Positions 18,919-59,684 of a stretch of 64,000 nt of DNA are shown piece after piece. Where the stretch lies: NCBI GenBank assembly GCA_964398815.1, contig CAYNNZ010000002.1, positions 207 to 64,206 on the forward strand. Direction: 5' to 3'. The notes under the pieces were generated by a model. The model was not told the origin of the DNA, did not search any database, and saw only the letters and a list, made by a program, of their open reading frames with translations. The DNA comes from an uncultured Candidatus Saccharibacteria bacterium (GTDB taxonomy: Bacteria > Patescibacteriota > Minisyncoccia > Phycocordibacterales > Phycocordibacteraceae). Each line of letters begins with the position of its first letter. Position 1 is the first letter of the stretch. Made by a program: the position numbers and the translations under genes.

Positions 18919-19047
18919 GATGAAAGAGCTGTATACACACAATACCCTAAACAAATAAGAAGGGTTAATGAAGCAAACGCACCTTGTGTATATCTTGTGT
19001 GCAAAAAAAATAAATTCGTTCCCAGGTAAACCTTCAAAAATGATTTA

Positions 19048-19130
19048 GATGCGAGGCACGGGAGGAAGGGCGATGGAGACGTATAGATGATACGACGACG
19101 GAGCCCTGAGGGCCCCGTAACGACGCAGAT
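19048..19130 (+). repeat. structured intergenic repeat, copy A (REP/MITE-like family)
   Basis: GAUGCGAGGCACGGG...GUAUAGAUGAUACGACGACGGAGCC...GGGCCCCGUAACGACGCAGAUG. It shares the core with copies B to E. Confidence 0.5.
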
Positions 19131-19148
19131 GAATTATCTTTTGGAGGT

Positions 19149-32583: not shown

Positions 32584-32698
32584 GGTGGGATACCTCCCCT
32601 AGTGGTGAAAGGAACAAAAATCTTTGCCCCCTCTGCTCGCGCAGAAAGAAGGAAGGAATCTTCCCTCTCTCTTTCTGCGCTCGCAGAGAGTTATCCGA

Positions 32699-33534: not shown

Positions 33535-34728
33535 ATGGAATCGAATCACGACTCGTCCCAGACCAAGAAAGCTGCCGTTGGCGGCCTTGCCGTCGTGGGC
33601 TTTATTGCACTCATCCTTATCGGCATCGCGACCGCTATCTACGCCGCATCCTTCCTTCCGAAGGCTATCGGCAAGCTCTCGTCCGCTAACGTGTACCTCT
33701 CTGGTCTCGTGCAGCCGAACGACAACAACAATACGCTTCAGGCAGTCCAGCCGACGACTCCGTTTGTCGACTCTCCTGCGCCGACCTCGATTCCCCTCTC
33801 GCCTGCAACCTCGACGTCCCCACTCCTGCCGACCGAACAGCCGACCACAGTCCCGACCTACACCCCGCCGGCAACTCAGCCGACCAAGCCGGTCTACACG
33901 GCACCAGCCACTCCGACCTACACCCGTGTACAGGTTCCTTCGACGCCGAACTACTACGGCCTCGCTGACCTTGTGACCACGATTACTGGCGTCGGCTACC
34001 TCCGCACGAACGGCGATACGAACTCCTTCATCGCGGCAAGCACGGTCCCGTCCGGCTACCAGGGCGCAGTACGATTCGTTATCGCTAATCGTGGTACGAA
34101 TGTCTCCCCGTCTTGGGATTTCCGCGCCTCCCTTCCGGGAGCCGGTAACTCGAGCGACTACCGCTCTGACTCCCAGCGTTCCCTTAAGCCTGGCGACAGC
34201 ATCGTCTTCACGATGGGCTTCGATTCCACCACCCGTGGAAGCGACACCGTGCGCATCGAGGCTGATTCCTCTGACCGCATCAATGAGTCGAACGAGAGCA
34301 ACAACGTCGCGTCCCAGACCATTTATCTGAACGGCAACTCGAACAACAACTCGAACAGCAATCGGGACTACGACAGTAATGGTACCTACTGCCGCTACGG
34401 CACCTACTACCAGAACAGTCGCTACTACTGCGAGACGTCGAACTCAAATCGCAACAATGATGACTACGACAGTAATGGTAACTACTGCCGCTACGGCACC
34501 TACTACCAGAACAGTCGCTACTACTGCGAGACGTCGAACTCAAATCGCAACAATGATGACTACGACAGTAATGGTAACTACTGCCGCTACGGCACCTACT
34601 ACCAGAACAGTCGCTACTACTGCGAGTCTTCGAGCTCCAACAACGATCGCGATTACGATAGCAATGGCAACTTCTGCCCAGATGGCGCGTACTACAGCTA
34701 CTCGAACAACCGCTATTACTGCTACTAA
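33535..34728 (+). CDS. membrane-anchored CARDB-domain protein with C-terminal Cys/Tyr-rich 31-aa tandem repeats
   Basis: N-terminal TM. Pro/Thr linker. CARDB-like core ...VRFVIANRGTNVSP...SDRINESNESNNV. Repeats DYDSNGNYCRYGTYYQNSRYYCETSNSNRNN x3.5. Confidence 0.7.
   Translation: MESNHDSSQTKKAAVGGLAVVGFIALILIGIATAIYAASFLPKAIGKLSSANVYLSGLVQPNDNNNTLQAVQPTTPFVDSPAPTSIPLSPATSTSPLLPTEQPTTVPTYTPPATQPTKPVYTAPATPTYTRVQVPSTPNYYGLADLVTTITGVGYLRTNGDTNSFIAASTVPSGYQGAVRFVIANRGTNVSPSWDFRASLPGAGNSSDYRSDSQRSLKPGDSIVFTMGFDSTTRGSDTVRIEADSSDRINESNESNNVASQTIYLNGNSNNNSNSNRDYDSNGTYCRYGTYYQNSRYYCETSNSNRNNDDYDSNGNYCRYGTYYQNSRYYCETSNSNRNNDDYDSNGNYCRYGTYYQNSRYYCESSSSNNDRDYDSNGNFCPDGAYYSYSNNRYYCY
34363..34690 (+). repeat. 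near-perfect 93-bp tandem DNA repeat (~3.5 copies) inside the CARDB gene
   Basis: cgactacgacagtaatggtaactactgccgctacggcacctactaccagaacagtcgctactactgcgagacgtcgaactcaaatcgcaacaatgatga repeated in tandem. Confidence 0.85.
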
Positions 34729-38691: not shown

Positions 38692-38761
38692 GTCCTCAGG
38701 GGTAGAAAAAATCCCTGTATTTGCTACTGTTTTAGCATCGGGCTCGGGGAAAAGTGCCGCA

Positions 38762-38840
38762 GGCAAGGCATGGGCAGACAGTAAGCGCAGGCGTATTCCG
38801 TATACGACGGAGCGAGCTGGCGGGGCCCATAACGCAGACT
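38762..38840 (+). repeat. structured intergenic repeat, copy B
   Basis: ...AAGGCAUGGG...GCGUAUUCCGUAUACGACGGAGCGAG...GGGCCCAUAACGCAGAC. Track ORF 38754 reads through it. Confidence 0.5.
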
Positions 38841-38867
38841 GAGACGCTTTTAGCGGGCCCGCACTAT

Positions 38868-40109: not shown

Positions 40110-40120
40110 AATAACTACCT

Positions 40121-40832: not shown

Positions 40833-40908
40833 GCCGAGATAGCTCAGTTGGTAGAGCAACGCACTTGTAATGCGTAGGTCGCGAGTTCAAATCTCGCTCT
40901 CGGCTCCA
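40833..40908 (+). tRNA. tRNA-Thr (anticodon TGT)
   Basis: GCCGAGAUAGCUCAGUUGGUAGAGCAACGCACUUGUAAUGCGUAGGUCGCGAGUUCAAAUCUCGCUCUCGGCUCCA. Cloverleaf with a 7-bp acceptor stem, GG in the D-loop, anticodon loop CU-UGU-AA, and a TΨC-loop UUCAAAU; CCA is encoded. Confidence 0.85.
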
Positions 40909-40956: not shown

Positions 40957-41355
40957 ATGGAGGTACTTCACTGCCTGCAGTGCAGGAATGAGTTACTAAA
41001 ACGTCACCAAAAGAAGTACTGCTCCAATAAATGTCAGGCTGATTTCCAGTATTCCCTTTTTAAGAAAGAGTGGTTGAGTGGCACCCGCACTGTCGTTACA
41101 AAAAATATCTCCGCACACATCAAGCGCTATTTAATCGAAACACATGGGGAGAAATGCATGCAATGTGGTTGGGCCACTAGGCATAGTTTAACTAAAAGAG
41201 TGCCTTTGGAGGCAGACCATATTGACGGAAACTCCGACAACAATTCGAGAAAGAACCTGCGTCTTCTTTGTCCAAACTGCCACTCCCTCACCACCTCATT
41301 CCGTAACCTTAACAGAGGTCGTGGTAGGAATTGGAGAAACAAGCAAGGTGATTAG
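40957..41355 (+). CDS. HNH endonuclease (free-standing) in a low-GC islet next to tRNA-Thr
   Basis: Paired CxxC zinc knuckles (CLQC...CSNKC; CMQCGW...CPNCH) and an HNH core EADHIDGNSDNNSRKNLRLLCPNCH. Local GC about 45% versus about 58% in the flanks. Confidence 0.75.
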   Translation: MEVLHCLQCRNELLKRHQKKYCSNKCQADFQYSLFKKEWLSGTRTVVTKNISAHIKRYLIETHGEKCMQCGWATRHSLTKRVPLEADHIDGNSDNNSRKNLRLLCPNCHSLTTSFRNLNRGRGRNWRNKQGD

Positions 41356-42331: not shown

Positions 42332-42390
42332 AGGTACTTAGTCTAATGTGTTTTTAAAATTTCTCACTAGGAGACTGTTGAGGGTTTCGG

Positions 42391-42473
42391 GGACGAGGCA
42401 CGGGCGGTTCAGTGAGTAAAACGTATGAGTGATACGGCGCACGAACTGAACGGGACCCGTAACGAAGTGTCCG
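42391..42473 (+). repeat. structured intergenic repeat, copy C (in the rpsB-tsf spacer)
   Basis: GGACGAGGCACGGG...GUAUGAGUGAUACGGCGCACGAAC...GGGACCCGUAACGAAGUGUCC. Confidence 0.5.
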
Positions 42474-42489
42474 GAAGCCTCAACGGCTC

Positions 42490-44528: not shown

Positions 44529-44593
44529 GTCGCCTGACTATACCCCACCACCCCCAGCAATGCAACGCATAAGCCTCTCAAAATGGCCTAAAG

Positions 44594-44668
44594 ACAAGGC
44601 GCGGGAGGGAGATTTTCGTAGACGTATGGGGTATACGGCGGAGAAAATCGACGGGCCCCGCAACGCAG
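44594..44668 (+). repeat. structured intergenic repeat, copy D
   Basis: ...AAGGCGCGGG...GUAUGGGGUAUACGGCGGAGAAAAUC...GGGCCCCGCAACGCAG. Confidence 0.45.
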
Positions 44669-44689
44669 TATTTTTGACATTTTGCAGGC

Positions 44690-46036
44690 TTATCCGCCCA
44701 AGGTGTCGATATCTGACTGATACTGAGCCGCAAAATCCATCACGCTATTGGCATAGGCCTGACCGGCCGTAGCCCAATTCCCTCCTGCATAGTATTTCGC
44801 AGCTGCGGTGTGTTCCGCGTTATAGGAGCCACCGGCACCCCCTACGGCCGAGAGGTAGAGACCCGTCGCGGTAATGGCATGGAGCGGATTCCATGGGTCG
44901 GCCGCTGAAATACCCAACGCCTTCTCTATTTGCGGCTTAAGTCCAATCCACGTGGATGGGATGAACTGAGTCGGACCCATGGCGCCACCATATCCATTCC
45001 CCTGAGGACAGGAGACGGCCGTTGTTTTCCAGTCGCGCCCGAGGTCATCCATGATGGTCTTGAACGGGACGGTGTCGCGCGGCGACTTCATGACCCCTGT
45101 CGCTGCGTTTGAGTTTCCTGTTCCAAAGCCGGTCGCGAGGTCGGTCACATAGCACCTGCCCACGTTCGAACCGAGATTCGACTCCTGTCGCAAAATGGCA
45201 AGAATGAATGCCGCCCGCACTCCGGTAATACGTGATGAGGTCTTTGCGTATTCAATAGCGGTTGGGAGCGGTATCTGACCGCCACCACCTGCAAGTGCGA
45301 ACAATTCCGAACGAATCTGCGCGGCAGTCTTCTGCTTCGTCGCAACAATCTGCTGATACAGATTCTCCTGTCCCTTGGTAGCAGTGAGTAGCTGCTGCTT
45401 AGCATTCTGTTGATCCTGAACTTTCTTCTTTGCCTCCAGCTGCAGCTGCGCCACCTGCTGCTGCTGCTTACGCTGCTCTTCCAGCTCATCCTTTTCCGCC
45501 TCAGCCTGCAACTTCGTGCCAGTAATGACTTCATAGGAATCCCCAAGCGACTGCTTCACGAATGCGTACGAGTCGAGGTCCCCGAACAACTTGCTGATGT
45601 CGTCTGCAGAAAACGCGAGCTCGACGAGAGACATATTGTCGATTTCTTCGGTACGGCGAAGTATCTGCGCAAGCGACTCTTTCTCGTTCGAGAGCTTGGT
45701 TGAGAGCGACGTGATGGTCCTCTGATGTACGGAAATATTCGAATCAATCTGCTTGATGGCGACCTGAGTGGCCTGCACCTGCAGCTGCGCCTTCTTGATC
45801 TGTGCATTCAGTGTCGCAACCTCGGTCGAAAGCGACTTACCCTGCGAAGCAAGCTTGTCGACCATCGCCTGGTTCTCAGCGATTTCAGACTCGAGCTGGT
45901 TCAACTGGCTCTGCAGCTGCGCGCGCCGGTCGTCGGTCGACTGCGCGAACAGCACATGCGGCAGGACTGCACCTGCGGTAAGCGCAATGATGAGAATGCC
46001 TACGAATAGGGCTGGTAGAGAGAACCTGAGGCGCAT
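44690..46036 (-). CDS. secreted coiled-coil protein with C-terminal lytic transglycosylase (MltB/SLT_2-like) domain, paralog 1
   Basis: Signal/TM. About 230 aa of Gln/Glu-rich coiled coil. C-terminal LRQESNLG...GGAMGPTQFIPSTW...YYAGG. About 75-80% identical to 56549..57907. Confidence 0.7.
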   Translation of the reverse strand: MRLRFSLPALFVGILIIALTAGAVLPHVLFAQSTDDRRAQLQSQLNQLESEIAENQAMVDKLASQGKSLSTEVATLNAQIKKAQLQVQATQVAIKQIDSNISVHQRTITSLSTKLSNEKESLAQILRRTEEIDNMSLVELAFSADDISKLFGDLDSYAFVKQSLGDSYEVITGTKLQAEAEKDELEEQRKQQQQVAQLQLEAKKKVQDQQNAKQQLLTATKGQENLYQQIVATKQKTAAQIRSELFALAGGGGQIPLPTAIEYAKTSSRITGVRAAFILAILRQESNLGSNVGRCYVTDLATGFGTGNSNAATGVMKSPRDTVPFKTIMDDLGRDWKTTAVSCPQGNGYGGAMGPTQFIPSTWIGLKPQIEKALGISAADPWNPLHAITATGLYLSAVGGAGGSYNAEHTAAAKYYAGGNWATAGQAYANSVMDFAAQYQSDIDTLGG

Positions 46037-46059
46037 ATCTTGTATATTCTAGCAGACGT

Positions 46060-46096
46060 AAAAAGAGCCGATTCCTTGCAGAATCGGCTCTTTTTA
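46060..46096 (-). terminator. Rho-independent terminator downstream of rplY copy 1
   Basis: aaaaagagccgattc-cttgcag-aatcggctcttttt. Confidence 0.5.
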
Positions 46097-46130
46097 TCTA
46101 CCTGGGCGCCTGAAGACGCAGAAATATTTT

Positions 46131-46220
46131 GGATGCGAGGCGCGGGAAATTTCTGAGCGCAGGCGTATTCCGTATACGACGGAGCGAGGAAATGGGTCCC
46201 GCAACAACGCAGACAGGATG
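46131..46220 (+). repeat. structured intergenic repeat, copy E (absent from the paralogous locus at 57908-57986)
   Basis: GAUGCGAGGCGCGGG...GCGUAUUCCGUAUACGACGGAGCGAG...GGGUCCCGCAACAACGCAGAC. Track ORF 46129 reads through it. Confidence 0.55.
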
Positions 46221-46221
46221 T

Positions 46222-46866
46222 TTATGCGTCTTCCGTAGACTCTTCAGTCTCCTTGCCCTTACCTTCGACTTCGATACTATCCATATCCGGAGCAGCAGAA
46301 TCCTCCTCCTTCTCTTCCTCAATAGCCTGAGCAAGTGCGACTACCTCCTCGCCATCCACCTTCACAGTGACGCCTGCAGGAATCTTGAGGTCTGACACGC
46401 GGATTTGGTCACCCTCAGCAGCAAGTGCCGACATGTCGACTTCAATCTCGTGCGGAAGGTTAGCGGGGTCTGCCTCGATTTCGAGTTCATGCATAACCTT
46501 CACAATATTCATGCCGAGCTTAACGGCCGGAGCCTCACCGATGAATGAGAGCGGCACCGCGACCTCGACTTTCGCGCCCTTCTCGATTGCGTAGAGGTCC
46601 GCATGACGCGGGAGATTCGTGACTGGGTCAAAATCAACGTCATGAATGAGCACCTGCATGTCAGCACCGAGTCCGGTGAGCGAAATGACGGAAGACTCAC
46701 CTGCGTCGCGGAGAATCTTCTTAAATTCTCCTGCCTCGAGCGAAATGGAGGTTGCGTCCTGCTTCGGTCCATAAACAACCGCAGGAATACGGCCTACTGC
46801 GGCAAGTGCGCGTCCAGCTTCCTTACCGGTCGCCTCGCGCGTCTGTGCGTTCAAAGTAATAGTCAT
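46222..46866 (-). CDS. rplY: 50S ribosomal protein L25 / general stress protein Ctc, copy 1
   Basis: MTITLNAQTREATGKEAGRALAAVGRIPAVVYG... plus an acidic tail. Paralog at 57987..58631. Confidence 0.85.
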   Translation of the reverse strand: MTITLNAQTREATGKEAGRALAAVGRIPAVVYGPKQDATSISLEAGEFKKILRDAGESSVISLTGLGADMQVLIHDVDFDPVTNLPRHADLYAIEKGAKVEVAVPLSFIGEAPAVKLGMNIVKVMHELEIEADPANLPHEIEVDMSALAAEGDQIRVSDLKIPAGVTVKVDGEEVVALAQAIEEEKEEDSAAPDMDSIEVEGKGKETEESTEDA

Positions 46867-46920
46867 ATAGAGGTATGTAGTACCTGCCGAGTATGCCGGA
46901 AATAGGCCGTTCTGGCAATA

Positions 46921-47919
46921 TTAGCCCACCAGTGCCTCCGAAACGGTCTTTAGCCGAGCCAGGAATGCCTCCCGAGCCTTCCCCACGTTCTCCTTCTTCC
47001 CCTTCCATATAAGGAGAGCTTCTTCTTGGAGGGCACGAGCGAAACTGAAGGTAAGCGGCCATGGCGCATTTCGCTCCTTCGCGAGTTTTGCTATTGCGCG
47101 CAGGTTTTCGGTCGCCTGGTCGGGCGTCTGACCACCTGATAGGAAGACGATGCCTGCAAGTCCGCGCGGCACGATATCCATGAGAACTGAAACCGTGTCT
47201 TCCGCCACCTCCTCAGGGGTATCGGTCCGGCCGCTCTCATGACCAGAAAGCACCATGGCGGTCTTGAGAATGACGCCTGACGGGTCCACTGCATTATCGG
47301 CAAGTGCCTCGAATACGGTCTTGAGCGTTGCCTCGAGTACGGCCTTGGCGCGGACACGACTATGCGTTCCTGCGTACATGACCTCCGGCTCGATGATGGG
47401 AACCATGCCGACTTCCTGCACATCGCGCGCGTAAATAGCGAGGCGGCGTGCATTCTCCACAAGCGCCTGTGCTGTCGGCAGCGTATCTCCTTCGATGGTC
47501 ACGACCGCGCGCCATTTCGTGAAGCCAGTTTCGTATTCCTTCCGGAATCCTATAAGTCGGTCACAGAGACCTATGACCCCCTTGGTTATAAGTTCGTTCG
47601 GGCTTTCCGGAAACGGTTCCGTTCCCTCATCCACCTTAATGCCTGGAGTGATGCCACGGGCCGCAAGTGATTTTGAAAATAACTTCTTATCGCTTCCCTT
47701 CTGGTTCAACTGTTCGGAGAACAGAATGACGCCGGAGAGATACTGCTCGACACCCGGTGCCGTGAGGTAGAGGTCGTGGAATTGCCTGCGCATCTCCTCG
47801 CCCTGCTCGATGCCATGGTCGGCGAGCCGTTTGTCGGCAGTGTGCGTGCTTTCGTCGGCAGCCAGAATGCCTTTCCCGGGAGCAAACAACGATTCAGCGA
47901 TAGTGGAGAGGTCAGTCAT
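46921..47919 (-). CDS. fba: fructose-bisphosphate aldolase class I, copy 1
   Basis: GKGILAADESTHT Schiff-base-region motif and IVFLSGGQ. Paralog at 58686..59684. Confidence 0.85.
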   Translation of the reverse strand: MTDLSTIAESLFAPGKGILAADESTHTADKRLADHGIEQGEEMRRQFHDLYLTAPGVEQYLSGVILFSEQLNQKGSDKKLFSKSLAARGITPGIKVDEGTEPFPESPNELITKGVIGLCDRLIGFRKEYETGFTKWRAVVTIEGDTLPTAQALVENARRLAIYARDVQEVGMVPIIEPEVMYAGTHSRVRAKAVLEATLKTVFEALADNAVDPSGVILKTAMVLSGHESGRTDTPEEVAEDTVSVLMDIVPRGLAGIVFLSGGQTPDQATENLRAIAKLAKERNAPWPLTFSFARALQEEALLIWKGKKENVGKAREAFLARLKTVSEALVG

Positions 47920-47938: not shown

Positions 47939-50900
47939 CTAGAACTCGACGATGTTCGGGAGCACGTTCACCACGACCTTCTTCTTCGTGCCGCCACAAT
48001 CGATTTCATACGTGCGCTGCGTCGTGATGTTCGTGATGGTGACGGTATTTGATGCAGAGCTCGTGATTTGACACTGCGCGTCCGAGACGGTCGTGGTGCG
48101 TGTGTTTACGCTCGTACCGCCTACATCCACTCCGTTTACCGTACAGGTCTGCCCTGCCGTCTCGCCTGTAACACTCCACGCTACCGTTACGCTTCCGCCT
48201 GAGGTGACGTGCGTCGGAGTCGCGGTAATGGTCTGCGTAAGTGGGTCGGAGCAGGTGTTTGCCTCGCCTGCGATAGTGACTGGCGAACAGGTGAATGGTC
48301 CTGCCGATTGCGTCCCGTTGGTTGCTGATACGGTTGGTGCGTAGTTACCCGGAGCCGCAAACTGCGACGTGAACGCGCTGCTTGCACCCGATCCTGATGC
48401 AGGTGTGCCGCCCGTAACATTCCAAGTGTATGAGGCCGGGGACGGTGAGAAGCCGGTTACTGTTGCTGTCCAGGTCACATCCACATTTGGAGCAGCAGCT
48501 GAAGGAGATGGTGTACACGAGCTGATAGTAGGTACCGCAGGAGCTGATACAGCAATCGCCGTCCATGCACCACAGTTATCATTCTCATCAGACTCTGTGA
48601 TGATTCCTAGATTCGATCCACTACTCTTATCCGCACACACACGCAGATACTTAGTGGTGCCTCCATCACCGGCTGGGAAGGTGTACGAGATGCTGGTCGG
48701 TGCAGTGCCTCCTGAAAGCATTACGCCAAGTGCGCTCACTCCAACATCGGATGCCCCACCTCCTGAAGCATCATTCGCCTTCTGGAGAAGTGTCGCGAAG
48801 CCAGCGCCGGTCGAAGCAGCGCCATTATTGGTTACGGTTGCCGAATATGAAGCTGAGGAGCCGGTGGTTGCTGATGTTGGAGAAACACTTCCCGTAGTGA
48901 GGTTAGGCTGTGCGGTAGCTACGGTTACAGCCGTCCAAGCACCACAGTTGTTTGCCTCGTCGCTCTCGGTGATAGCTCCTACGAATGAGGTGTTGTTATC
49001 AGCACAGATGCGCGTGTACCAGGTGCCCGCCGTTCCCATGGTGTACGTGTAGTAGGCCGTTCGACTCGATCCATTTGCTATTGCGGCGGTCGTGGTAGCA
49101 AACGATGCGGTGACACTCGTGTGATCAACATCATTATCGAACTGGAAGAGAGTGTTGAAGGTAGCTCCGGTTGGTGCTGTTCCCCCGTTTGTGACGGTGC
49201 CCGAGAAGACGGTACTTACCGACGTTGAGACCGTGGTCGGTACGACGGTGCCTGCAGTGAGATCTGGCTGTGCAGCAGAGCCAACGGTGACCGCAGTCCA
49301 AGCACCACAGTTGTTTGCCTCGTCGCTTTCTGTAATAACGCCCGTACCTGCCGTTGACTGCTTGTCAGCACAGACACGAACATATTTTGTAGTACCTCCA
49401 TCACCTGCTGGGAAGGTGTAGCTCAATTGAGCATTGGTAGTATTGCTGCCTCCCGTATTACTGAGTGTTGCGTTTGCATAGGTACCAATATCAGTCGCTC
49501 CGGTACCAGAAGCATCGTTTGCCTTCTGGAAGAGGTCAGTAAACGCTGCTCCTGTGGAAGCCGTACCTCCGTTCGTAACGGTAGCCTGAAGGGTTACGGC
49601 ACTACCCGCTGTCGCGGCTGTTGGGGTTACCGCTCCCGTGGTGAGATCAGGTAGTGGTGTAGTCACCGTAACGGTTCCTCCGTCGGACGTTCCGCCATTG
49701 CCGTCAGCATTGAGCGAACAAGCAATTGCGCCCGTATTCTGCGCACCACTCGTTACCGTCACCGTAGCAGTCTTTGCACCTGAGGAGACGTAGCTCTTCA
49801 CGACTGACACTGTTGAGCCAGTAAGACTATCTGTTCCGCTCCAACTATAGGTGTAGCTACCCGTACCTCCAGACGGATATGCCGTCCAGGTAACGTTCTG
49901 ACCGGTGTTTATGCTGGTCGGAAGTGCAGAACACGTAACTGCGAGTACGTTGTATACCGTAACCGCTGTCCATGGGGCACAGTTATCTCCCTCATTACTT
50001 TCAGTAATAGTGCCGACAAATGACGAGTTGTTATCCGCACAAGCACGCACATACCACGTACCCGCAGATGGGAACGCGTAACTCACACTTGCTGCATTGT
50101 TAGCGCCTGCTGCAAGGGTGGCATTACTGTGTGTACCGATAACGGTTGCACCCGTACCCGAGGAATCGGTTGCGCGCTGGAAGACGTTCGTGAAGCCGGC
50201 ACCGGTAGTTGCACCTCCTGTGTTTGTGACCGTGGCGCCAATGGTTGCCGCTACTCCTGCGACCGGATTAGTTGGGGTGGCGGTCATTGAACCGGCGGTG
50301 AGGTTTGGCTGAGGTGCGGCAGTCACCGTAACTGTTTGCCAAGCGCTACAGTTGTTCGCTTCATTCGATTCCGTAATACTTCCGACACTACTCGTGTTGA
50401 GATCGGCACAGGCACGCACCTGATAGCTACCCGTTGAGGTGAAGGTGTAATTCGCAGAGATTGCTGCGTTACCACTCGCGACAAGAGCCGTAATGGTGTT
50501 AGCGGCCACGTTGGTGACACCCGAGATCTGAATGGTGTTTGAGAAGGTTCCGCCGGCTGTCGCTGCTCCAGGGTTAGAAACGGTCGCAGTGAGATTGAGC
50601 GCTACATTCTGTGTTGCGGACGTCTGACCTATGAGGCTCGCGGTAAGGTCCGGCTGCGGAAGTGCATCAAGGGTAACAGCAGTCCAGGCACCACAGTTGT
50701 TCGCTTCGTTACTCTCTGTGATAGCGCTTGTAGAGTCAGCACACACTCGAAGGTACTTCGTGGTGCCAGCATCACCTGCTGGGAAGGTGTACGAGATATT
50801 GGTATTTGAGGAGGCACCGTTTGCGAGCGTTCCCATAGCCGCTGTCGCAATATCCGTTGCACCCGTACCAGACGCATCTGTTGCCTTCTGAGCTTTGTTA

Positions 50901-52525
50901 GTAAAGCCAGCACCCGTTGAAGCTGTTCCCCCGTTAGTGACTGAAGCAACAATACTTACCGCGACACCTGTTGCGGTTGAAGCGGGTGACGTAACACTTC
51001 CGGTAGAGAGATCTGGCTGTGGAGGAGCAGCTACCGTAACGGTGGTCCAGGCACCACAGTTGTTCGCTTCGTTACTCTCGGTGACGGCAGAAGCACCATC
51101 GGCACAGAGGCGAACCTGGTAGGTTCCGGCACTTGGATACGTAACGTTTGCTGAGGTTGAGTTAGATCCGGACGCCGCAACCGTAATGGAGTTGGTGGTA
51201 TAACTCGAACCACCCTGCACCTCTATCGTAGAAGTGAAGTTGCTGGCCGCCGTACCACCACCGTTTGAGACGGTTCCAGACGTTGATACTGCCTGCCCCG
51301 CTGTTGCTGTGGTTGGCGAGATAGTACCTGCAGTGAGATCAGCAGGAGCTGCAGCAATCGTTACCGAGTAGGTAGTCCAACCTGAACTTGAACTATTCGA
51401 ATCTTGCGCGAGCGCACGGAAGGTCTTCGTGCCGACCGTTGCCCAACTGTAGTCTTGCGTACGGCTTGTTCCGCTACTTACGTATCCTGAGGCAGGGAGC
51501 CATTGATCAACGGCACCATCGAAGTCCCAGTCGATACCGTAACGGAGCTGATCATTATCTGGGTCAGTACTTACAAAGGAGTAGGTATACGAAGTACTTG
51601 GAAGACCAGTAGTAGGTCCACCAATAGTAGGTGCGGTTGGTGGATTATTCGGGACCACCGCAGTAAGCGGATAGTTAACCGTGAATGCTGGAATGTTCAC
51701 CTGCTTACCTGGGCGTATTTGAACTGCGTGCTGTGAGGGATGATAACTATCTTCTTGCGGTCCATTGGCAAGCGGGTAGTTGTTTCCAACACAGGTGCCG
51801 CCGCTCGGAGCTCCACCGTATCGGTAGTAGAAATAGCCGTACGACGTGCCGAAATTAAAGTTAGGAGCGAGAGCACCGGTTGATGTAACCGTACAGGTTG
51901 CTATCAATGAACCGTCTCCCTGCGCAGTAAGCGCACCACAGGAAAGACCGGATAGGTTAGAGAGGGCTCGTGTTGGCGGTGTAAGACTGAGAGGGACGAA
52001 CTGATCGAAGTATCGCTCGCCACCAGAGTCGCTCTCATGTGCGCTCGAAGTGTAGTCCTTGTAATCACAAGTTGCTGCCTGCGGTGGCGCACCACCAGCG
52101 ATCCAGTCTCCGTAAGGTGAGTCCACCACACCACCGGTTCCAAACCAGAAGATGTTTTGATAGACATACGGGTTGAACTTGAGATCGATCGTCTGACCTA
52201 CAGACACCGTACCGTTCTGCGCGATAGAGGAGCCTGAATTATGGTCAAGGACGAATACGTCATACCCCACCGTGATGTTGGGGTTCGAAAGGGCGTTTTC
52301 ATATCCAGCTACATATGGTCCTCCCCAGTCCCATGCGTAATAGAAGTCTCCAGTGATCTGAACAGACTGCGTGTAGTGACCGGTTACGGGCAAGTTTGTG
52401 GGAGCAGTCGCGGTGATGTAGATAATCGAGACCGGTGGGATGTCACCGCCAGCAAGAACCCCAAAAGGGATAGTAAGCACCAGGAGGGCAAGAATGCGGG
52501 CGAGATCTAGAAGGTAAGGACGCAT
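47939..52525 (-). CDS. giant secreted protein (~1528 aa) with PKD-like and more than 10 CARDB-like tandem domains
   Basis: Signal peptide MRPYLLDLARILALLVLTIPFGVLA (start at the internal Met 4 nt after the upstream gene's stop). Repeats end in the (I)TESNEANNCGAWTAVTV CARDB signature. IDWDFDGAVD is a PKD-like motif. Confidence 0.8.
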   Translation of the reverse strand: MRPYLLDLARILALLVLTIPFGVLAGGDIPPVSIIYITATAPTNLPVTGHYTQSVQITGDFYYAWDWGGPYVAGYENALSNPNITVGYDVFVLDHNSGSSIAQNGTVSVGQTIDLKFNPYVYQNIFWFGTGGVVDSPYGDWIAGGAPPQAATCDYKDYTSSAHESDSGGERYFDQFVPLSLTPPTRALSNLSGLSCGALTAQGDGSLIATCTVTSTGALAPNFNFGTSYGYFYYRYGGAPSGGTCVGNNYPLANGPQEDSYHPSQHAVQIRPGKQVNIPAFTVNYPLTAVVPNNPPTAPTIGGPTTGLPSTSYTYSFVSTDPDNDQLRYGIDWDFDGAVDQWLPASGYVSSGTSRTQDYSWATVGTKTFRALAQDSNSSSSGWTTYSVTIAAAPADLTAGTISPTTATAGQAVSTSGTVSNGGGTAASNFTSTIEVQGGSSYTTNSITVAASGSNSTSANVTYPSAGTYQVRLCADGASAVTESNEANNCGAWTTVTVAAPPQPDLSTGSVTSPASTATGVAVSIVASVTNGGTASTGAGFTNKAQKATDASGTGATDIATAAMGTLANGASSNTNISYTFPAGDAGTTKYLRVCADSTSAITESNEANNCGAWTAVTLDALPQPDLTASLIGQTSATQNVALNLTATVSNPGAATAGGTFSNTIQISGVTNVAANTITALVASGNAAISANYTFTSTGSYQVRACADLNTSSVGSITESNEANNCSAWQTVTVTAAPQPNLTAGSMTATPTNPVAGVAATIGATVTNTGGATTGAGFTNVFQRATDSSGTGATVIGTHSNATLAAGANNAASVSYAFPSAGTWYVRACADNNSSFVGTITESNEGDNCAPWTAVTVYNVLAVTCSALPTSINTGQNVTWTAYPSGGTGSYTYSWSGTDSLTGSTVSVVKSYVSSGAKTATVTVTSGAQNTGAIACSLNADGNGGTSDGGTVTVTTPLPDLTTGAVTPTAATAGSAVTLQATVTNGGTASTGAAFTDLFQKANDASGTGATDIGTYANATLSNTGGSNTTNAQLSYTFPAGDGGTTKYVRVCADKQSTAGTGVITESDEANNCGAWTAVTVGSAAQPDLTAGTVVPTTVSTSVSTVFSGTVTNGGTAPTGATFNTLFQFDNDVDHTSVTASFATTTAAIANGSSRTAYYTYTMGTAGTWYTRICADNNTSFVGAITESDEANNCGAWTAVTVATAQPNLTTGSVSPTSATTGSSASYSATVTNNGAASTGAGFATLLQKANDASGGGASDVGVSALGVMLSGGTAPTSISYTFPAGDGGTTKYLRVCADKSSGSNLGIITESDENDNCGAWTAIAVSAPAVPTISSCTPSPSAAAPNVDVTWTATVTGFSPSPASYTWNVTGGTPASGSGASSAFTSQFAAPGNYAPTVSATNGTQSAGPFTCSPVTIAGEANTCSDPLTQTITATPTHVTSGGSVTVAWSVTGETAGQTCTVNGVDVGGTSVNTRTTTVSDAQCQITSSASNTVTITNITTQRTYEIDCGGTKKKVVVNVLPNIVEF

Positions 52526-52529
52526 ACGG

Positions 52530-53954
52530 TTATAGCGATGAAGGTGGTACGAGTGGCGTTGGCACATGCGGTTTAGGGCGCGTGCGCAGATACACGAGCA
52601 CAACAATTCCAATGAGCAGTAAGGCCGTCACTCCATATATACCAATCGCCATGAGTGATGGTGCCTGGCAGGCTCCACCGAGCTGACTGCAACGATATGG
52701 GATCGTTATCTTATCAATGGTCTTTCCATTCTGGGAGACCTTAGCCACCAAGTCGAAAGAAGTGAGTCCTGCCTTAGCAACGGGCATGGTAAGCGCCACA
52801 ATTTGGGACGGTGCGACTCCTTCATATACTTGATGTGAAAGCGGAATACCAATCAATCCGAAGAAGAGCGGTTCCTTCATCCACACATCGACGCGGGTAC
52901 CGGCAGCTTCTCCGAGACCTGCGTCATGGAAGCAGGCGAATGCTTTCGACTCAGCGGTGGTGGGATACTCAGTAACATTCAGTGAGTTGATGCGGGGAGT
53001 ATCGATTCCACGTCGTGCAAATCGAATGCCCACTATTGATTTCGATCCTGCGGGTGTCTTGAGTTCCCCAACGAGGTAGTACACCGAGTGACTTGTATCA
53101 GTAAGCGCATAAGAGACAGATGCTTTTGTTCCGGCTCCCACTTCAACACGTTCTGTTTTCTGATCAATGAGGTGGTCCTCACGAATACCATCCCAGTAAT
53201 AGAGTTTCCAGTGGACCTCTCCTGAATAATTCTGAACACCTGTGTTCTCTACATCTATCTTTATCGCTGTCTCCTTAAGATCAGGTGGCAAGGTCTGGGG
53301 AAATGCTGCGAAGTAGTAAGGGTGGTCGTTTATGGTCGCAGTTCCTTTGTCGAATCGAGTTGGGCCTGCACTGTCACCTATCACCTTGAACTGATAGAAG
53401 CCGCCAGTGACGTCGTCTGTGAATGAGAGGCCGAGGAAATTAAAGCGATCCTTTTGAGTAACGTACGCTGCCATTCGATACTGTCCGGGTGCCGCATCTG
53501 CAGGAACATTCCATGTAAACTGAAGTGGCAGTGTTTCCCCTGCTTTGAGATTCACGTGCTCGAGCACGGGGAAGAAGTCAACAATGTCTGGACCGTTCAC
53601 GTCCTTTTCTACGCTGCGCTGACGCATCACCTTTACATACACCGTCGCATCGACGATCGGATACTTGTTCTGATTCGTTACGCTTCCCGAGACTGCAAAC
53701 GGGACACCAATAGAGACAGAAGCAAGTTCTGCAGTGAGCACCACCGGTGTTGAACCGAATGTGTAATAGAGGAAGCAGCTATCGAGGTTGGTATCGGTGC
53801 GCACTACTGCATTTTGCGCAGTTGGTGCCTTGGTTTTATCAAAGGTTTCAAATCCTGCTTGAGCAGATACGGTCGTTGGACCGAGAAGAAGCGCGAGTAC
53901 GAGCGGAATAATGAACGAGGTACGAACAAAGGTAGACGCAGTTGGACGACTCAT
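52530..53954 (-). CDS. hypothetical cell-surface protein (474 aa) with signal peptide and C-terminal TM anchor
   Basis: N-terminal signal VLALLLGPTTVSAQA. C-terminal TM LMAIGIYGVTALLLIGIVVLVYLRTRPKP. Immediately upstream of, and co-oriented with, the CARDB giant gene. Confidence 0.6.
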   Translation of the reverse strand: MSRPTASTFVRTSFIIPLVLALLLGPTTVSAQAGFETFDKTKAPTAQNAVVRTDTNLDSCFLYYTFGSTPVVLTAELASVSIGVPFAVSGSVTNQNKYPIVDATVYVKVMRQRSVEKDVNGPDIVDFFPVLEHVNLKAGETLPLQFTWNVPADAAPGQYRMAAYVTQKDRFNFLGLSFTDDVTGGFYQFKVIGDSAGPTRFDKGTATINDHPYYFAAFPQTLPPDLKETAIKIDVENTGVQNYSGEVHWKLYYWDGIREDHLIDQKTERVEVGAGTKASVSYALTDTSHSVYYLVGELKTPAGSKSIVGIRFARRGIDTPRINSLNVTEYPTTAESKAFACFHDAGLGEAAGTRVDVWMKEPLFFGLIGIPLSHQVYEGVAPSQIVALTMPVAKAGLTSFDLVAKVSQNGKTIDKITIPYRCSQLGGACQAPSLMAIGIYGVTALLLIGIVVLVYLRTRPKPHVPTPLVPPSSL

Positions 53955-55502: not shown

Positions 55503-56552
55503 ATGGACCGGCCTCCCTTCTTCCGTATTGCATTCATTCTGCTTATCTTGGGAGGTGTGTTGCTGGCCGTGCCGTACCTATTTCCTCATGACCGTCCACT
55601 TGAAGTAACCATCTCCACCAAACCCTTAGCGGTTCTTCCTGAGCATTCACATGATTTAGGTGAAGCAGAGGGTGATGATGGTCACGGAGTCTACGCATAC
55701 TCAGAAAGTGTCGTGGTGCCAGAAGATATGTGGGTCACCACCATCGAGGCGCATATGAAAAATGCTCCCGACTCTACCATTCACCATTTCATTTTGAAGG
55801 AAATGGGTGCGACCGATCCTGCATGTCCAAACTCTAGTGGCCGCACGCTATTCCTATTTGGACGCGACACCCGTTCACCGCAGCATTTCGGTGCCGCTCC
55901 CTACGGCATTTTTATTCCAAAAGGAACACCACTCGCGCTTGTGGCAATGATTCATAATCCGCACCCTCCCGAAGGCGTCGGTGGGACATACAAAGACGTG
56001 TCTGCAGTCATGACCGTGCGCGGCGTTGCTTCTGGTGGTTCGCGCACAAAGCCTTTGTCCATACGATTCCTAGTACTTTCTGACACGTCCTACTGCAATG
56101 ATTCGCCAGAAGCAAACACGTTTAGTATCCCTGCACTACGTAAGGAATACGTACAACAAAGTACTACGCTACAAGGAATTAATCGCGGGTCCCTTACCTT
56201 TGATGGAGATGCGACCCTGCTTGGCTTTGGCGGACATATTCATGCGTGGGAGGGCGGCAATGCGCTTGCGGTATATCTCAATAATAATTTGCTCCAGCTC
56301 ATCACGCCCCATCAAGCAGGAGCGGAACCCTGGTCATGGAAAACAGCTCCCGTAGATCGAGCGGTGCCGATGAAGAAAGGTGACACTATTTCACTTACGG
56401 CTACGTACGAAAATCCGAATGTAGTACCCACTCGCGGAGCCATGGGAATTGTGGGCTTAATATTCTGGCAACCTTCAAAGGAAGCGGAGTTGCTTGCGCC
56501 GTACAAGCAGACTACTGCCACCACCACTCTGGATCGGTACGGAACGTTCTAA
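55503..56552 (+). CDS. hypothetical membrane-anchored protein (349 aa)
   Basis: N-terminal TM FRIAFILLILGGVLLAV. No family assigned. Its 3' end overlaps the convergent LT paralog by 4 nt. Confidence 0.5.
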   Translation: MDRPPFFRIAFILLILGGVLLAVPYLFPHDRPLEVTISTKPLAVLPEHSHDLGEAEGDDGHGVYAYSESVVVPEDMWVTTIEAHMKNAPDSTIHHFILKEMGATDPACPNSSGRTLFLFGRDTRSPQHFGAAPYGIFIPKGTPLALVAMIHNPHPPEGVGGTYKDVSAVMTVRGVASGGSRTKPLSIRFLVLSDTSYCNDSPEANTFSIPALRKEYVQQSTTLQGINRGSLTFDGDATLLGFGGHIHAWEGGNALAVYLNNNLLQLITPHQAGAEPWSWKTAPVDRAVPMKKGDTISLTATYENPNVVPTRGAMGIVGLIFWQPSKEAELLAPYKQTTATTTLDRYGTF

Positions 56553-57907
56553 CCGCCCGCTAGTGTATCGATATCGTTCTGGAAGGTAGAGGCCTTATCC
56601 ATCACACTGTTTGCATATGCTTGGCCTGAAGATGCCCATGCACCGCCAGCGTAGTACTTAGCAGCTGCCGTATGCTCTGCGGCGTAGTTTCCACCTCCCC
56701 CACCTACAGCTCCAAGATAGAGGCCTGTTGCAACAATGGCGTGGAGTGGATTCCATGGGTCCGTTGCGGCGACCCCAAGTGCACTCTTAATGCGTGATTC
56801 GAAGGAGAGCCAAGTTGAAGGAATGAACTGGGTTGGACCCATTGCGCCGCCGTAGCCGCCGGGCTGCGGACAGGAGACTGGCGTAGTGGACCAGTCGCGA
56901 CCAAGTGCATCCATGATTGCTTTAAACGGAACGGTGTCGCGTGGCACCTTCATGATTCCTGAGAATGGTGTTCCGGTGTTCTTTCCCTTTCCGTCTCCCG
57001 TCGTAAGGTCGGTAACCAAACACTGGCCAACGTTTGCACCGAGATCTGTTTCCTGCGAAAGAATGGCGAGAATGAACGCTGCGCGTACGCCCGTGATGCG
57101 TGAAGCGGTCTTTGCGTACTCAATAGCAGTTGGAAGCGGAATCTTTCCAGCACCTCCGGCGAGTCCGAAGAGCTCTGCACGAATCTGACCCGCAGTCTTT
57201 TGTTTCGTCGCAACAATCTGCTGATACTTACTCTCCTCTCCCTTGGTAACCCTTAGGAGATCCTGCTTCGCTTGCTGTTGCTGTTGTACCTTCGCCTTAG
57301 CAGCCAGTTGTAGTTGCGCTACGTCCTGCTGTTGTTTGCGCTGTGCTTCGAGTGCAGACTTTTCACTTTCCGTTTGTAGTTTAGTACCCGTGATCTCTTC
57401 GTATGAATCCCCGAGTGCTTGCTTCACGAACACGTATGAGTCGAGATCACCGAGTAGTGTTGAAATATCTTCTGCGGAGAATGCAAGTTCAACGAGTGAC
57501 ATGGTGTCAATCTCATTGGTACGTCTTAAAATTTGTGCAAGAGACTCTTTCTCATTTTGTAGCTTCTCCGAAAGCGTACTGATGGTGCGCTGATGCACGG
57601 TGATATTGGAATCGAGTTGTTTGATAGCTACCTGCGTCGCCTGCACCTGGAGCTGCGCTTTTTTAATTTGCGCATTGAGCGTCGTCACTTCACTAGAAAG
57701 AGATTTACCCTGTGCGGAAAGTTTTTCGACCACTGCCTGGTTTTCTGCAATCTCTTTCTCGAGCTGATTCAGCTCATTCTGAAGTTGAGTGCGCCGCTCG
57801 TCAGAGATGCTCTGAGCGAAAATGAGGTGAGGAACTACCGCTCCCGCCAGCAAAACGAGAGACGTGAGGAGTACTGCGAGCGCACCGAGAGAAAACCGCA
57901 AACGCAT
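56549..57907 (-). CDS. secreted coiled-coil lytic transglycosylase-like protein, paralog 2
   Basis: Collinear paralog of 44690..46036 (MRLRFSL... N-terminus, same ES / GAMGPTQFIPSTW / YYAGG motifs). Confidence 0.7.
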   Translation of the reverse strand: MRLRFSLGALAVLLTSLVLLAGAVVPHLIFAQSISDERRTQLQNELNQLEKEIAENQAVVEKLSAQGKSLSSEVTTLNAQIKKAQLQVQATQVAIKQLDSNITVHQRTISTLSEKLQNEKESLAQILRRTNEIDTMSLVELAFSAEDISTLLGDLDSYVFVKQALGDSYEEITGTKLQTESEKSALEAQRKQQQDVAQLQLAAKAKVQQQQQAKQDLLRVTKGEESKYQQIVATKQKTAGQIRAELFGLAGGAGKIPLPTAIEYAKTASRITGVRAAFILAILSQETDLGANVGQCLVTDLTTGDGKGKNTGTPFSGIMKVPRDTVPFKAIMDALGRDWSTTPVSCPQPGGYGGAMGPTQFIPSTWLSFESRIKSALGVAATDPWNPLHAIVATGLYLGAVGGGGGNYAAEHTAAAKYYAGGAWASSGQAYANSVMDKASTFQNDIDTLAGG

Positions 57908-57934
57908 ACTATTGTTTCAAGTATATCAGACGGA

Positions 57935-57969
57935 CAAAGCGCCGATCTCTTTCGAAATCGGCGCTTTGT
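57935..57969 (-). terminator. Rho-independent terminator downstream of rplY copy 2
   Basis: caaagcgccgat-ctctttcgaa-atcggcgctttg. Confidence 0.5.
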
Positions 57970-57986
57970 GACGCACAAAAGGGGTT

Positions 57987-58631
57987 TTATTCAGCTTCTG
58001 CTGCGCCCTCTTCCTCACTCTTACCCTTACCTTCGACTTCAATAGCGTCCATATCTGGAGCTGCTGAGTCTTCTTCCTTCTCTTCCTCAATAGCCTGCGT
58101 GAGGGCAACGACTTCTTCGCCATCTGCCTTAACGGTAACCCCAGCTGGGATCTTAAGGTCAGATACGTGGATCTGGTCACCAAGCTCTGCGAGACCGGAA
58201 ATATCAACCTCGATGTGCTGTGGAAGATTTGCTGCGTCAGCTTCGATATCGAGCTCATGCATAACCTTAACAAGGTTTGCGCCCGCCTTAACCGCTGGTG
58301 ACTCACCGGTAAACTCAAGAGGTACGGCAATTTCAACCTTTGCACCCTTCTCGATAGCGTAGAGGTCGGCATGACGAGGGATGCTGGTTACGGGATCGTA
58401 GTCAACATCATGGATAAGAACCTGGAGGTCCTTACCAATACCCGCGAGGGCGAGCACAGACGACTCACCCGCATCACGGAGAATCTTTTTGAACTCAGCG
58501 AGCTCAAGGGAAATGGTGGTCGACTCCTGCTTTGGTCCGTAGACCACCGCTGGAATACGGCCTTCTGCGGAAAGAGAGCGGCCGGCGTGCTTGCCGGTCT
58601 CGGTTCGGGTTTGTGCGTTTAGCGTAAACAT
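57987..58631 (-). CDS. rplY: 50S ribosomal protein L25 / Ctc, copy 2
   Basis: MFTLNAQTRTETGKHAGRSLSAEGRIPAVVYG... Start at the internal Met of the track ORF, aligned to copy 1. Confidence 0.8.
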   Translation of the reverse strand: MFTLNAQTRTETGKHAGRSLSAEGRIPAVVYGPKQESTTISLELAEFKKILRDAGESSVLALAGIGKDLQVLIHDVDYDPVTSIPRHADLYAIEKGAKVEIAVPLEFTGESPAVKAGANLVKVMHELDIEADAANLPQHIEVDISGLAELGDQIHVSDLKIPAGVTVKADGEEVVALTQAIEEEKEEDSAAPDMDAIEVEGKGKSEEEGAAEAE

Positions 58632-58685
58632 ATATAGGTAGTGATACCTGGCGAGTATGCCTGAAAAGCCCCTGAATGGCAAGAA

Positions 58686-59684
58686 CTAGGCCGTAAGTGC
58701 CTCAGATACCTTCTGTAAACGCTCGAGAAAGACTGCGCGGGCTGCCTCTACGTTCTTAGGCTGTCCCTTCCAGGTGTTGAGAGCTTCTTCTTGTACCGCG
58801 CGGGCGAAGGAGAAAGTGATGGGCCAAGGGGCTCCTTTGGACTTTGCCACCTTTGCAATTGCCCGGAGATTCTCAGTTGCCTGGTCCGGCCCCTGTCCTC
58901 CCGATAGAAATACGATACCGGCAAGACTGGCGGGGACCGTCTCCATGAGCGCGGCAACCGTATCCTCGGCCACTTCTTCTGGAGTATCCATACGTCCACT
59001 CTCACGTCCTGAGAGTGCCATCGCAGTTTTAAGAACGGTACCCGAGAGGTCTACCGCATGATCGTTCATCGCTGCAAAGACACTCTGCATGGTTGCTTCG
59101 ATAACCGTCCTGGCACGTACACGACTATGTGTGCCTGAATACATAACTTCAGGTTCGATAATAGGCACCATTGATACTTCCTGAGCATCACGCGCATAGA
59201 CGGCAAGACGACGCGAGTTTTCGACAAGGGCTTGCGCTGTTGGAAGTCTATCGCCTTCAATCGTTACCACCGCACGCCACTTTGTGAAGCCGGTATTGTA
59301 GTCCTGATTGTATCCACTCAATCGATCACATAGTCCGAGCACTCCTTTGGTAATGAGCTCATCGGGGCTCTCTGGAAAGGGCTCAGTTCCTTCATCTACT
59401 TTGACGCCAGGAATGATACCTCTCTCCGAGAGAGAGACGGAGAACAGCTTCTTGTCACTTCCCTTCTGTGGAAGCTGTTCAGTATTGAGAATCGCTCCAG
59501 AAAGATATTGTTCAACGCCTGGAGCCGTTAAGTAGAGGTCATGGAACTTACGACGCATCTCTTCGGATGTCTCGATGCCATGATCGATAAGACGTTTATC
59601 TGCGGTGTGGGAACTTTCGTCAGCGGCCAATAACCCTTTTCCCGGGGCAAAGAGGCGCGCTGCTACTGCTGAAAGATCGGTCAT
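58686..59684 (-). CDS. fba: fructose-bisphosphate aldolase class I, copy 2
   Basis: MTDLSAVAARLFAPGKGLLAADESSHT... Start at the internal Met aligned to copy 1. Confidence 0.85.
   Translation of the reverse strand: MTDLSAVAARLFAPGKGLLAADESSHTADKRLIDHGIETSEEMRRKFHDLYLTAPGVEQYLSGAILNTEQLPQKGSDKKLFSVSLSERGIIPGVKVDEGTEPFPESPDELITKGVLGLCDRLSGYNQDYNTGFTKWRAVVTIEGDRLPTAQALVENSRRLAVYARDAQEVSMVPIIEPEVMYSGTHSRVRARTVIEATMQSVFAAMNDHAVDLSGTVLKTAMALSGRESGRMDTPEEVAEDTVAALMETVPASLAGIVFLSGGQGPDQATENLRAIAKVAKSKGAPWPITFSFARAVQEEALNTWKGQPKNVEAARAVFLERLQKVSEALTA

Follow-up and report, generated by a model that had tools for sequence, protein, structure and literature searches.

A hairpin repeat at one of two paralogous rplY-LT junctions

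The window analyzed here is a stretch of 64,000 nt (64 kb) of contig CAYNNZ010000002.1 from an uncultured Candidatus Saccharibacteria bacterium, a lineage named Parcubacteria/Paceibacteria by the homologues of its ribosomal protein L25. It holds two paralogous blocks, each with genes for a class-I aldolase, L25 (rplY), and a lytic transglycosylase (LT), and the subject of this work is copy E of a hairpin repeat, which lies between rplY-1 and LT-1 in block 1. That junction (46037-46221, 185 nt) is bounded by the LT-1 start at 46036 and the rplY-1 stop codon at 46222-46224, and within it a terminator hairpin at 46060-46096 (AAAAAGAGCCGATTC...GAATCGGCTCTTTTT), matched in an Rfam search by the terminator part of the Thr_leader model, is followed by an element of ~95 nt. 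The block-2 junction between rplY-2 and LT-2 (57908-57986) measures 79 nt, and a hairpin at 57935-57969 is its sole content. Both hairpins had been noted in an earlier, sequence-only reading of the window and were read at the same positions here.

Copies of the element were sought with covariance models over the full 64 kb with filters off. Model R1 was seeded with three window copies, obtained by repeat finding and pattern searches, and one copy of another genome; model R2 was built from 21 hits. Copy E scores 95 and 86 bits with the two models (E about 1e-20) and is placed at 46126-46222. The window has five copies; each is on the + strand, block 2 and its surroundings have none, and R2 recovers the same five at 77 to 88 bits and otherwise nothing above noise. 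The label copy E is therefore apt, as exactly five copies exist. The presence of the element, previously drawn as ~90 bp at 46131-46220, is borne out with the wider bounds given by the models. As the unfiltered models give no match in block 2, the element is absent there and not merely diverged beyond recognition, and pairwise alignment of the two junctions likewise gives block 2 no counterpart of it.

The two aldolase/L25/LT sets (44690-47919 and 56549-59684) are kept in a reduced genome at 75 to 80% amino acid identity (L25, 80%; LT, 75%; class-I aldolase, 78%) and are separated by Lnt-like and CARDB-repeat genes. Three relatives (L025, L028, and L043) have one block copy. The loci of relatives, given L numbers below, were examined over ~20 kb each, and the host was assessed through the 64-kb window.

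Structure of the hairpin and its apical domain

The element forms an extended hairpin. Its core measures ~95 nt, and the whole spans ~120 to 145 nt when the outer stem is included. Read on the + strand, its 5' part consists of an A-rich run (AAAAT/AAAAG), a spacer of ~8 nt, the box GATGCGAGGC, stem P1 (RYGGG/CCCRY), and then stem P2 of 8 to 10 bp, in which tandem G-A mismatches are frequent. The apical hairpin CGTAY-N5-RTACG sits within an internal loop that reads G-N-A-G-R 5' of it and R-C-G-G-A 3' of it, and together these form the conserved apical domain G.AGR-CGTAY-N5-RTACG-RCGGA. The 3' part continues with a conserved GGG, the box AACG(NNN)GCAGA, a spacer of ~8 nt, and a T-run. In copy E, these parts are the 5' box GGATGCGAGGC, P1 as GCGGGA/TCCCGC, P2, the internal loop GCAGG/ACGGA, the apical hairpin CGTAT-TCCGT-ATACG, and the 3' box AACAACGCAGAC.

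The fold is well supported by comparison of 15 distinct sequences, in which standard pairs fill 86% of the cells and double-sided changes occur at 15 of 21 pairs. None of 500 shuffles equalled the observed pairing or covariation, and sliding the register by 1 to 3 columns reduced pairing to 27 to 52%. A coding element is ruled out by inconsistent reading frames in the core: the frame differs from copy to copy, and the core is consequently not coding.

Outside the core, the arms are complementary within a copy and unrelated between copies. When complementarity was compared with that of shuffled flanks (500 shuffles, 11 copies), 10 of the 11 passed at the 5% level or better, and in four copies no shuffle reached the observed value; the outer stem of copy E was matched by 5 of 500. 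Here, the 9-bp inverted pair described in the sequence-only reading is seen to belong to a longer outer stem. The pair exists, with GAAGACGCA at 46112-46120 as given, while TGCGTCTTC lies at 46225-46233 rather than 46226-46234. Its role as a flank of the element does not hold, since the right arm is part of the segment exchanged between alleles (see below) and not untouched target. Weaker pairing may extend the hairpin to ~46099-46241, and the 3' arm spans the rplY stop codon together with the last codons.

The LT-rpmE copy, which the window shares with the relative L029, illustrates how the outer arms change. The window and L029 agree throughout the core (82 of 82 nt) and the far arm, whereas the near arm (window 44679-44693; L029 12060-12080) differs strongly and the LT stop codon is TAA in one and TAG in the other. 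Each near arm nevertheless pairs imperfectly with the far arm, each in a register of its own. Turnover of the outer arms is fast, yet complementarity is kept, a pattern that could fit either selection on the hairpin or repair templated by it.

The element can fold as RNA or single-stranded DNA on either strand, with the + strand the better one for copy E; as DNA, the extended copy E has fold z scores of -3.7 (+ strand) and -2.2 (- strand). In all 13 copies compared, the fold of the top strand is the more stable one (sum, -710 versus -568 kcal/mol), and that strand is favored in 8 of 11 outer stems, with 33 versus 22 G-U pairs. Its loops are purine rich, G-A/A-G mismatches occupy 25 cells, and a run of 3 to 5 T ends every copy after the hairpin. 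Taken as terminators, the copies have an AT-rich stem beside the T-run, and a consensus scan flagged none of them.

Antisense copies abut stop codons between housekeeping genes

The copies sit in short spacers that separate housekeeping genes. Several of these genes encode ribosomal proteins, and the neighbors are functionally unrelated (rpmF, rpsB, LT, atpD, rpmE, and GT2 [glycosyltransferase]). Orientation could be judged at 12 informative loci, namely, the five window copies, an extra copy in L001, two in L019 (L019a and L019b), one each in L027, L043, and L020, and one of the two copies in L024. In ~11 of these 12, the strand reading GATGCGAGGC...GCAGA is antisense to both neighbors. The exception is the copy at 38754, which comes after a terminator-like hairpin at what seems to be a boundary between operons.

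In all antisense copies, the T-run end of the hairpin meets the stop codon of the upstream gene, the hairpin base lying 0 to 5 nt from it in each. For the four antisense window copies and those of L027, L019a, and L043, the outer stem contains this stop codon, and in L019b the codon is 4 nt past the stem. Copy E and the copy at 38754 share an identical 33-nt core.

The GC content of the window, ~0.55 to 0.60, drops to ~0.50 past ~52 kb. The five copies all fall in the GC-richer portion, and block 2 and the pentose-phosphate genes in the poorer one.

Presence and absence among close relatives

The closest comparison is with L029, L030, and L031, whose L25 is 96% identical and of which L029 shares the two-block duplication. 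In all three, the rplY-LT junction of block 1 measures 76 nt and lacks the element. Between L029 and the window, the LT-side flank is identical from GATAAAAAGAGCC on for >100 nt and the rplY-side flank is nearly identical up to AAGGA. What lies between is not a clean insertion: 151 nt in the window (46099-46249) replace 42 nt of the empty allele, and this exchanged segment coincides almost exactly with the extended hairpin. At rplY-1, the hairpin replaced the last 9 codons and the spacer, giving L25 a new acidic tail (ETEESTEDA, versus DEEAADAEG in L029) and stop codon. Filled alleles (L001 to L010) and empty alleles coexist in samples ERZ27309396 and ERZ28656156.

The earlier proposal that the element was inserted or lost after the duplication, through mobility or recombinational loss, gains support from this empty block-1 junction. 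In L029, blocks 1 and 2 are both empty at rplY-LT. Further support comes from the single-copy relatives L025, L028, and L043, in which the junction is again empty (66 to 74 nt, each with a terminator hairpin), and from a second strain-polymorphic site and other junctions occupied in related species. The second site lies between GT2 and a 231-amino-acid open reading frame (ORF), where L001 and L002 are filled (~135 nt, with an outer stem of its own) and the window, L003, and L005 are empty. The search for presence/absence polymorphism in other strains proposed in the sequence-only reading has thus yielded two sites.

Among the other occupied junctions, L027 is filled at rplY-LT, with the element in place of the terminator hairpin. 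Its copy is no nearer to copy E than others are, and the nearest to copy E is the copy at 38754, which argues against a single ancient insertion at rplY-LT. L043 is filled at rpmE-prfA, where the last L31 codon is CGC versus AAG or AAA in empty relatives, and L019 is filled at atpD-atpC and one further junction. The rplY-LT gap of 239 nt on contig P0009 suggests a putative filled site. As L029 shares the LT-rpmE copy, that copy is older than copy E. The simplest history would start from a short ancestral rplY-LT junction (~70 nt, terminator only), with the element entering block 1 later and solely in the lineage of the window. That copy E was acquired more recently than both the aldolase-rplY-LT duplication and the divergence of the L029 lineage is well supported.

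Table 1. Coordinates of copy E, its locus, the paralogous block, and the other copies in the window
Feature	Position	Strand	Remarks
Copy E core, rplY-1/LT-1	46126..46222	+	95 and 85.7 bits; fold z = -4.6 on + strand
Copy E extended hairpin	46112..46233	+	GAAGACGCA (46112-46120) pairs with TGCGTCTTC (46225-46233)
Terminator-like hairpin	46060..46096	-	A-tract and T-tract on both sides; between element and LT-1 start; conserved, and identical in empty allele
Exchanged segment	46099..46249		151 nt here versus 42 nt in L029/L030/L031; includes last 9 rplY-1 codons
rplY-1 (L25/Ctc, 214 aa)	46222..46866	-	Pfam match; C-terminal tail ETEESTEDA within hairpin arm
LT-1 (SLT_2-like lytic transglycosylase, 448 aa)	44690..46036	-	Flanked by two direct element copies
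rplY-2 (214 aa)	57987..58631	-	80% identical to rplY-1
LT-2 (452 aa)	56549..57907	-	75% identical to LT-1
Empty rplY-2/LT-2 junction, block 2	57908..57986		Terminator-like hairpin alone; likewise empty in L011-L018
LT-1/rpmE copy	44585..44678	+	Outer arms CAAAATG/CATTTTG and ATAAGCCT/AGGCTTAT, taking in LT stop codon 44690-44692
rpsB/tsf copy	42384..42477	+	18-20 bp outer stem to rpsB stop codon 42490-42492; 0/500 shuffles
PheRS-like gene/GT2 copy	38754..38847	+	Sole sense-oriented copy
rpmF (L32)/nusB copy	19042..19138	+	Outer stem CCTTCAAAA/TTTTGGAGG runs through rpmF stop codon 19149-19151; 0/500 shuffles
Second polymorphic site, empty form	40110..40120		11-nt spacer, GT2 stop to start of 231-aa ORF

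Distribution outside the lineage and in databases

Exact-pattern scans, one for each large collection, covered genome contigs (4 loci) and metagenome contigs (2 loci). They recover the Paceibacteria metagenome-assembled genome (MAG) L019 and two Deltaproteobacteria MAG contigs, L020 and L021, in which the end boxes CAGATGCGAGGC and GAAGCAGATGGA are present together with the core, and the element (L020 4615-4765; L021 1165-1310) has a perfect 17-bp outer stem, CAGGCTGCTCAAAAAGC.... Judged by these sequences, few loci from scans confined to exact patterns, the family crosses phylum boundaries, and the Deltaproteobacteria copies suggest horizontal spread or mis-binning. On the soil contig L024 (1.5 kb), inverted copies at 335-418 (-) and 897-985 (+) surround a 79-amino-acid ORF, in contrast to LT-1 of the window, which is bracketed by two direct copies. 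A match in the archaeon L022 was taken as chance, only a 24-nt pattern being matched, and six viral-contig loci found with a relaxed core pattern, without the boxes and the long hairpin, were treated likewise.

The repeat family is new in that it is absent from the libraries searched. No Rfam 15 family matches any of the copies, whether the gathering threshold is applied or E values up to 10 are allowed, and the only Rfam matches for the element and four loci are terminator-like and fall on the neighboring hairpin. BLAST of a 136-nt region against plasmids and phages gave no match. Full-text literature searches returned no description of repeats of the miniature inverted-repeat transposable element (MITE) or repetitive extragenic palindromic (REP) kind in the Candidate Phyla Radiation (CPR)/Patescibacteria, nor of Parcubacteria RNA motifs, and searches by sequence words of the element returned nothing relevant. 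CPR/Patescibacteria also go unmentioned in a 2024 review of prokaryotic MITEs (PMC10969869).

Several likenesses were considered and set aside. An integron attC site is not indicated, as the ends ...CCCGCAAC and GATGCGAGG misfit R'' (RYYYAAC)/R' (GTTRRRY) and the copies are dispersed among housekeeping genes. Resemblances to E. coli 4.5S RNA (the words CCCGCAACGC/GCCGGGAUG), to the loop E strand of 5S rRNA (AUGCGAGAG), and to domain 5 of group II introns fail on swapped strands or on stems of insufficient length, and none of these RNAs is matched in Rfam.

Comparison with known repeats

The element shares with insertion sequences of the IS200/IS605 group, through their subterminal hairpins and short derivatives, a small conserved hairpin with flanking conserved bases that could be read on one DNA strand, and insertion without target duplication and with a strong orientation bias. 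It differs in that no TnpA/TnpB gene is nearby and that neither a conserved target tetranucleotide nor clear-cut left and right ends could be recognized for it.

REP elements have a conserved purine-rich tetranucleotide at the 5' foot of their hairpin, GTAG, where most copies of the element have G-N-A-G. The latter may recall the GTAG of REPs that is read by REP-associated tyrosine transposases (RAYTs), an analogy to be read with the variation among copies in mind: the foot is G-N-A-G in most, GTAG in 3 of ~13 (44585, L027, and L043), and TAAA or TGAA in others. Like REPs and their paired forms, REPINs, the element is short, non-coding, and extragenic, forms hairpins in single-stranded DNA or RNA, is without target-site duplication, and persists for long with compensatory stem evolution. 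There is no sequence similarity, no RAYT gene was seen in the window, and the host belongs to the CPR and is not a proteobacterium. A REPIN consists of two inverted REP units and a spacer, whereas the element consists of a single hairpin, long and asymmetric, that has one recognition-like hairpin at its apex and halves that are not inverted copies of one unit. REP/REPIN elements are mobilized by RAYT enzymes (PMC3116915, PMC3337134).

Similarly, Rickettsia palindromic elements (RPEs; reviewed in PMC10969869) are palindromic elements of ~100 to 150 bp in a reduced genome, and their overlap with coding sequence adds residues to host proteins, as is seen here for the last 9 codons and stop of L25 and the last L31 codon in L043. 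RPEs, however, insert in frame within genes and encode a conserved peptide, whereas in the element the overlap with the last codons is confined to the variable outer arm and the core is never translated; the two have no sequence relation.

Enterobacterial repetitive intergenic consensus (ERIC) and like repeats are of similar size, intergenic, and strain variable; ERIC is also found at gene 3' ends, and co-transcription of such repeats gives long RNA hairpins that are targets of RNase III or RNase E. For Correia elements, RNase III cleavage has been reported (PMC10969869). Those repeats have conserved terminal inverted repeats and usually TA or another target duplication. In the element, no duplication is seen, the terminal arms are copy specific, and the conserved positions lie mainly in the apical domain and in two internal boxes. 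As a MITE would be, it is small, non-coding, multi-copy (five copies in 64 kb), and variable between strains (two polymorphic sites). It lacks the shared terminal inverted repeats of a MITE, GATGCGAGGC and AACG..GCAGA not being inverted copies of each other, and no direct target-site duplication is found at the two filled/empty sites.

Interpretation and alternatives

Taken together, 46126-46222 is probably a copy of a non-coding hairpin repeat family that is either non-autonomously mobile or recombinationally exchanged, similar in kind to REP/REPIN elements, MITEs, or RPEs. It can be hypothesized that the apical hairpin with its G.AGR/RCGGA loop would be recognized in trans by an enzyme whose gene lies elsewhere in the genome, the leading guess being a single-strand-specific transposase of the HUH/Y1 type, as for REPs. 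Homologous recombination may then swap filled and empty alleles between co-existing strains, and such exchange would explain the sharp boundaries and the unrelated spacers. Only copies abutting a stop codon and sparing the start signals of the next gene would survive, in an orientation that would mostly place the weaker-folding strand into the operon mRNA. The orientation bias may reflect selection against a stronger hairpin and U-run in operon mRNAs. Within an mRNA, co-transcribed copies would form a stem of ~40 to 50 bp broken by internal loops, which RNase III, encoded in the window, could cut, and the hairpin would serve as a 3' stabilizer or RNase III target rather than as a terminator.

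Several observations weigh against a mobile or exchanged repeat. The look for target-site duplications that the sequence-only reading had proposed found none at the two filled/empty pairs, where the spacer is replaced instead, and no conserved terminal inverted repeat emerged from these two comparisons. The filled and empty spacers are unrelated, and the import of a diverged allele fits this equally with transposition. No transposase, Y1_Tnp included, was found in the scanned window ORFs or gene tables (64 kb plus the ~20-kb loci). The best-matching pair of copies in the window is only ~75% identical outside the identical 33-nt core, and there is hence no sign of a recent burst. In addition, strong purifying selection on the core and compensatory stems resemble a functional RNA more than junk DNA, and the better-folding strand (13 of 13 copies) is antisense to the neighbors, which a role purely at the mRNA level does not predict.

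Some of these points would be accommodated if the copies were genes for small structured RNAs, transcribed from the + strand antisense to the neighboring 3' ends, with copy E a gene copy made after the duplication, the upstream A-rich box (AAAAT/AAAAG) a weak -10 element, and the long hairpin with TTTT a terminator. We regard this as unlikely, though the most deserving of the alternatives. The greater stability of the top strand (all 13 copies and 8 of 11 outer stems), the T-run after every hairpin, the strong covariation with a core conserved across phyla, and the purine-rich, near-invariant internal loops with their G-A/A-G mismatches (25 cells), typical of RNA motifs, all speak for it. The core is shared by descent, however, and the energy asymmetry does not amount to 13 independent observations. 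Moreover, no sigma-70-like promoter was found between 38.6 and 46.4 kb where four were expected, the flanks are without a conserved -35 box, and gain and loss between close strains at junctions that vary among species would be unusual for a needed RNA. A vertically inherited hairpin of operon mRNAs (a stabilizer, processing site, or attenuator) that predates the duplication and was lost from block 2 and from the L029 lineage seems improbable. It would account for the common orientation relative to transcription in ~11 of 12 informative loci, for the constant 0 to 5 nt between hairpin base and upstream stop codon in the antisense copies, and for the filled rplY-LT junction of L027, where the element stands in place of the terminator hairpin, and an RNase III is at hand in the window. 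Against this, the empty junctions of L025, L028, L043, block 2, and both L029 blocks would require several independent precise losses, the copy closest to copy E is that at 38754 and not that of L027, the mRNA would hold the weaker-folding strand, and one copy is opposite in orientation.

The order on the - strand (rplY stop, element, terminator, LT start), together with covarying stems, would also be expected of a riboswitch or leader for LT, with an aptamer at 46220-46131 and the terminator at 46096-46060 as its expression platform. This is very improbable, being contradicted by the distribution and orientation of the copies: the element stands beside unrelated genes, antisense in ~11 of 12 informative loci and opposite in one copy, the terminator is identical in the empty allele and also present in block 2, LT-2 and all orthologues are without the element, and Rfam gives no match. 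It is scarcely credible, finally, that the blocks are a chimeric assembly or that a block-2 element has diverged past recognition. A fall in GC content from ~0.57 to ~0.50 near 52 kb could be taken to suggest a chimera, but at least five independent assemblies, made in different projects, each carry the two blocks on a single contig, and the duplication is therefore not an assembly artifact. As for divergence, 35 of the 79 nt of the block-2 junction are hairpin, an element of ~95 nt cannot fit there, and the unfiltered covariance-model search of block 2 returned nothing.

A more speculative proposal, to which we give only a small chance, is that of a new structured nucleic acid class in the CPR and Deltaproteobacteria. 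In it, the apical G.AGR-CGUAY-N5-RUACG-RCGGA and the boxes GAUGCGAGGC/AACG..GCAGA would form an RNA or single-stranded DNA module, conceivably the recognition or guide part of a transposition or nuclease system or else a small antisense RNA. Such a module might spread between gene ends and re-template its outer arms into a hairpin over the stop codon.

The very small and tightly packed genomes of CPR/Patescibacteria nonetheless carry a persistent structured repeat that differs between co-existing strains, rewrites the last codons of ribosomal proteins, and has a core common to distant phyla. It points to a trans-acting enzyme or an RNA function, and the paralogous blocks have diverged partly through its gain, beyond point mutation. 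For strain typing, the family could provide a marker, and the compensatory evolution of its outer stems is open to direct study.

Neighboring features of the window

A free-standing 132-amino-acid ORF with an HNH endonuclease domain (40957-41355, +) adjoins tRNA-Thr (40833-40908). The spacer at this ORF is ~300 nt shorter in L001 and L002 and may represent another strain-variable insertion.

Very large surface-type proteins built of tandem units are encoded at 26677-31443 (-) and 47939-52612 (-), and tandem units are also found at 34356-34643. The units are of ~240 nt in one protein and ~363 nt (CARDB) in another, and there are three near-identical units of 96 nt within a CARDB ORF.

Two adjacent, partly overlapping long palindromes at 32631-32737, with 28-nt arms that are 79 to 82% complementary, lie between an unannotated ORF and a sortase gene and are unrelated in sequence to the element.

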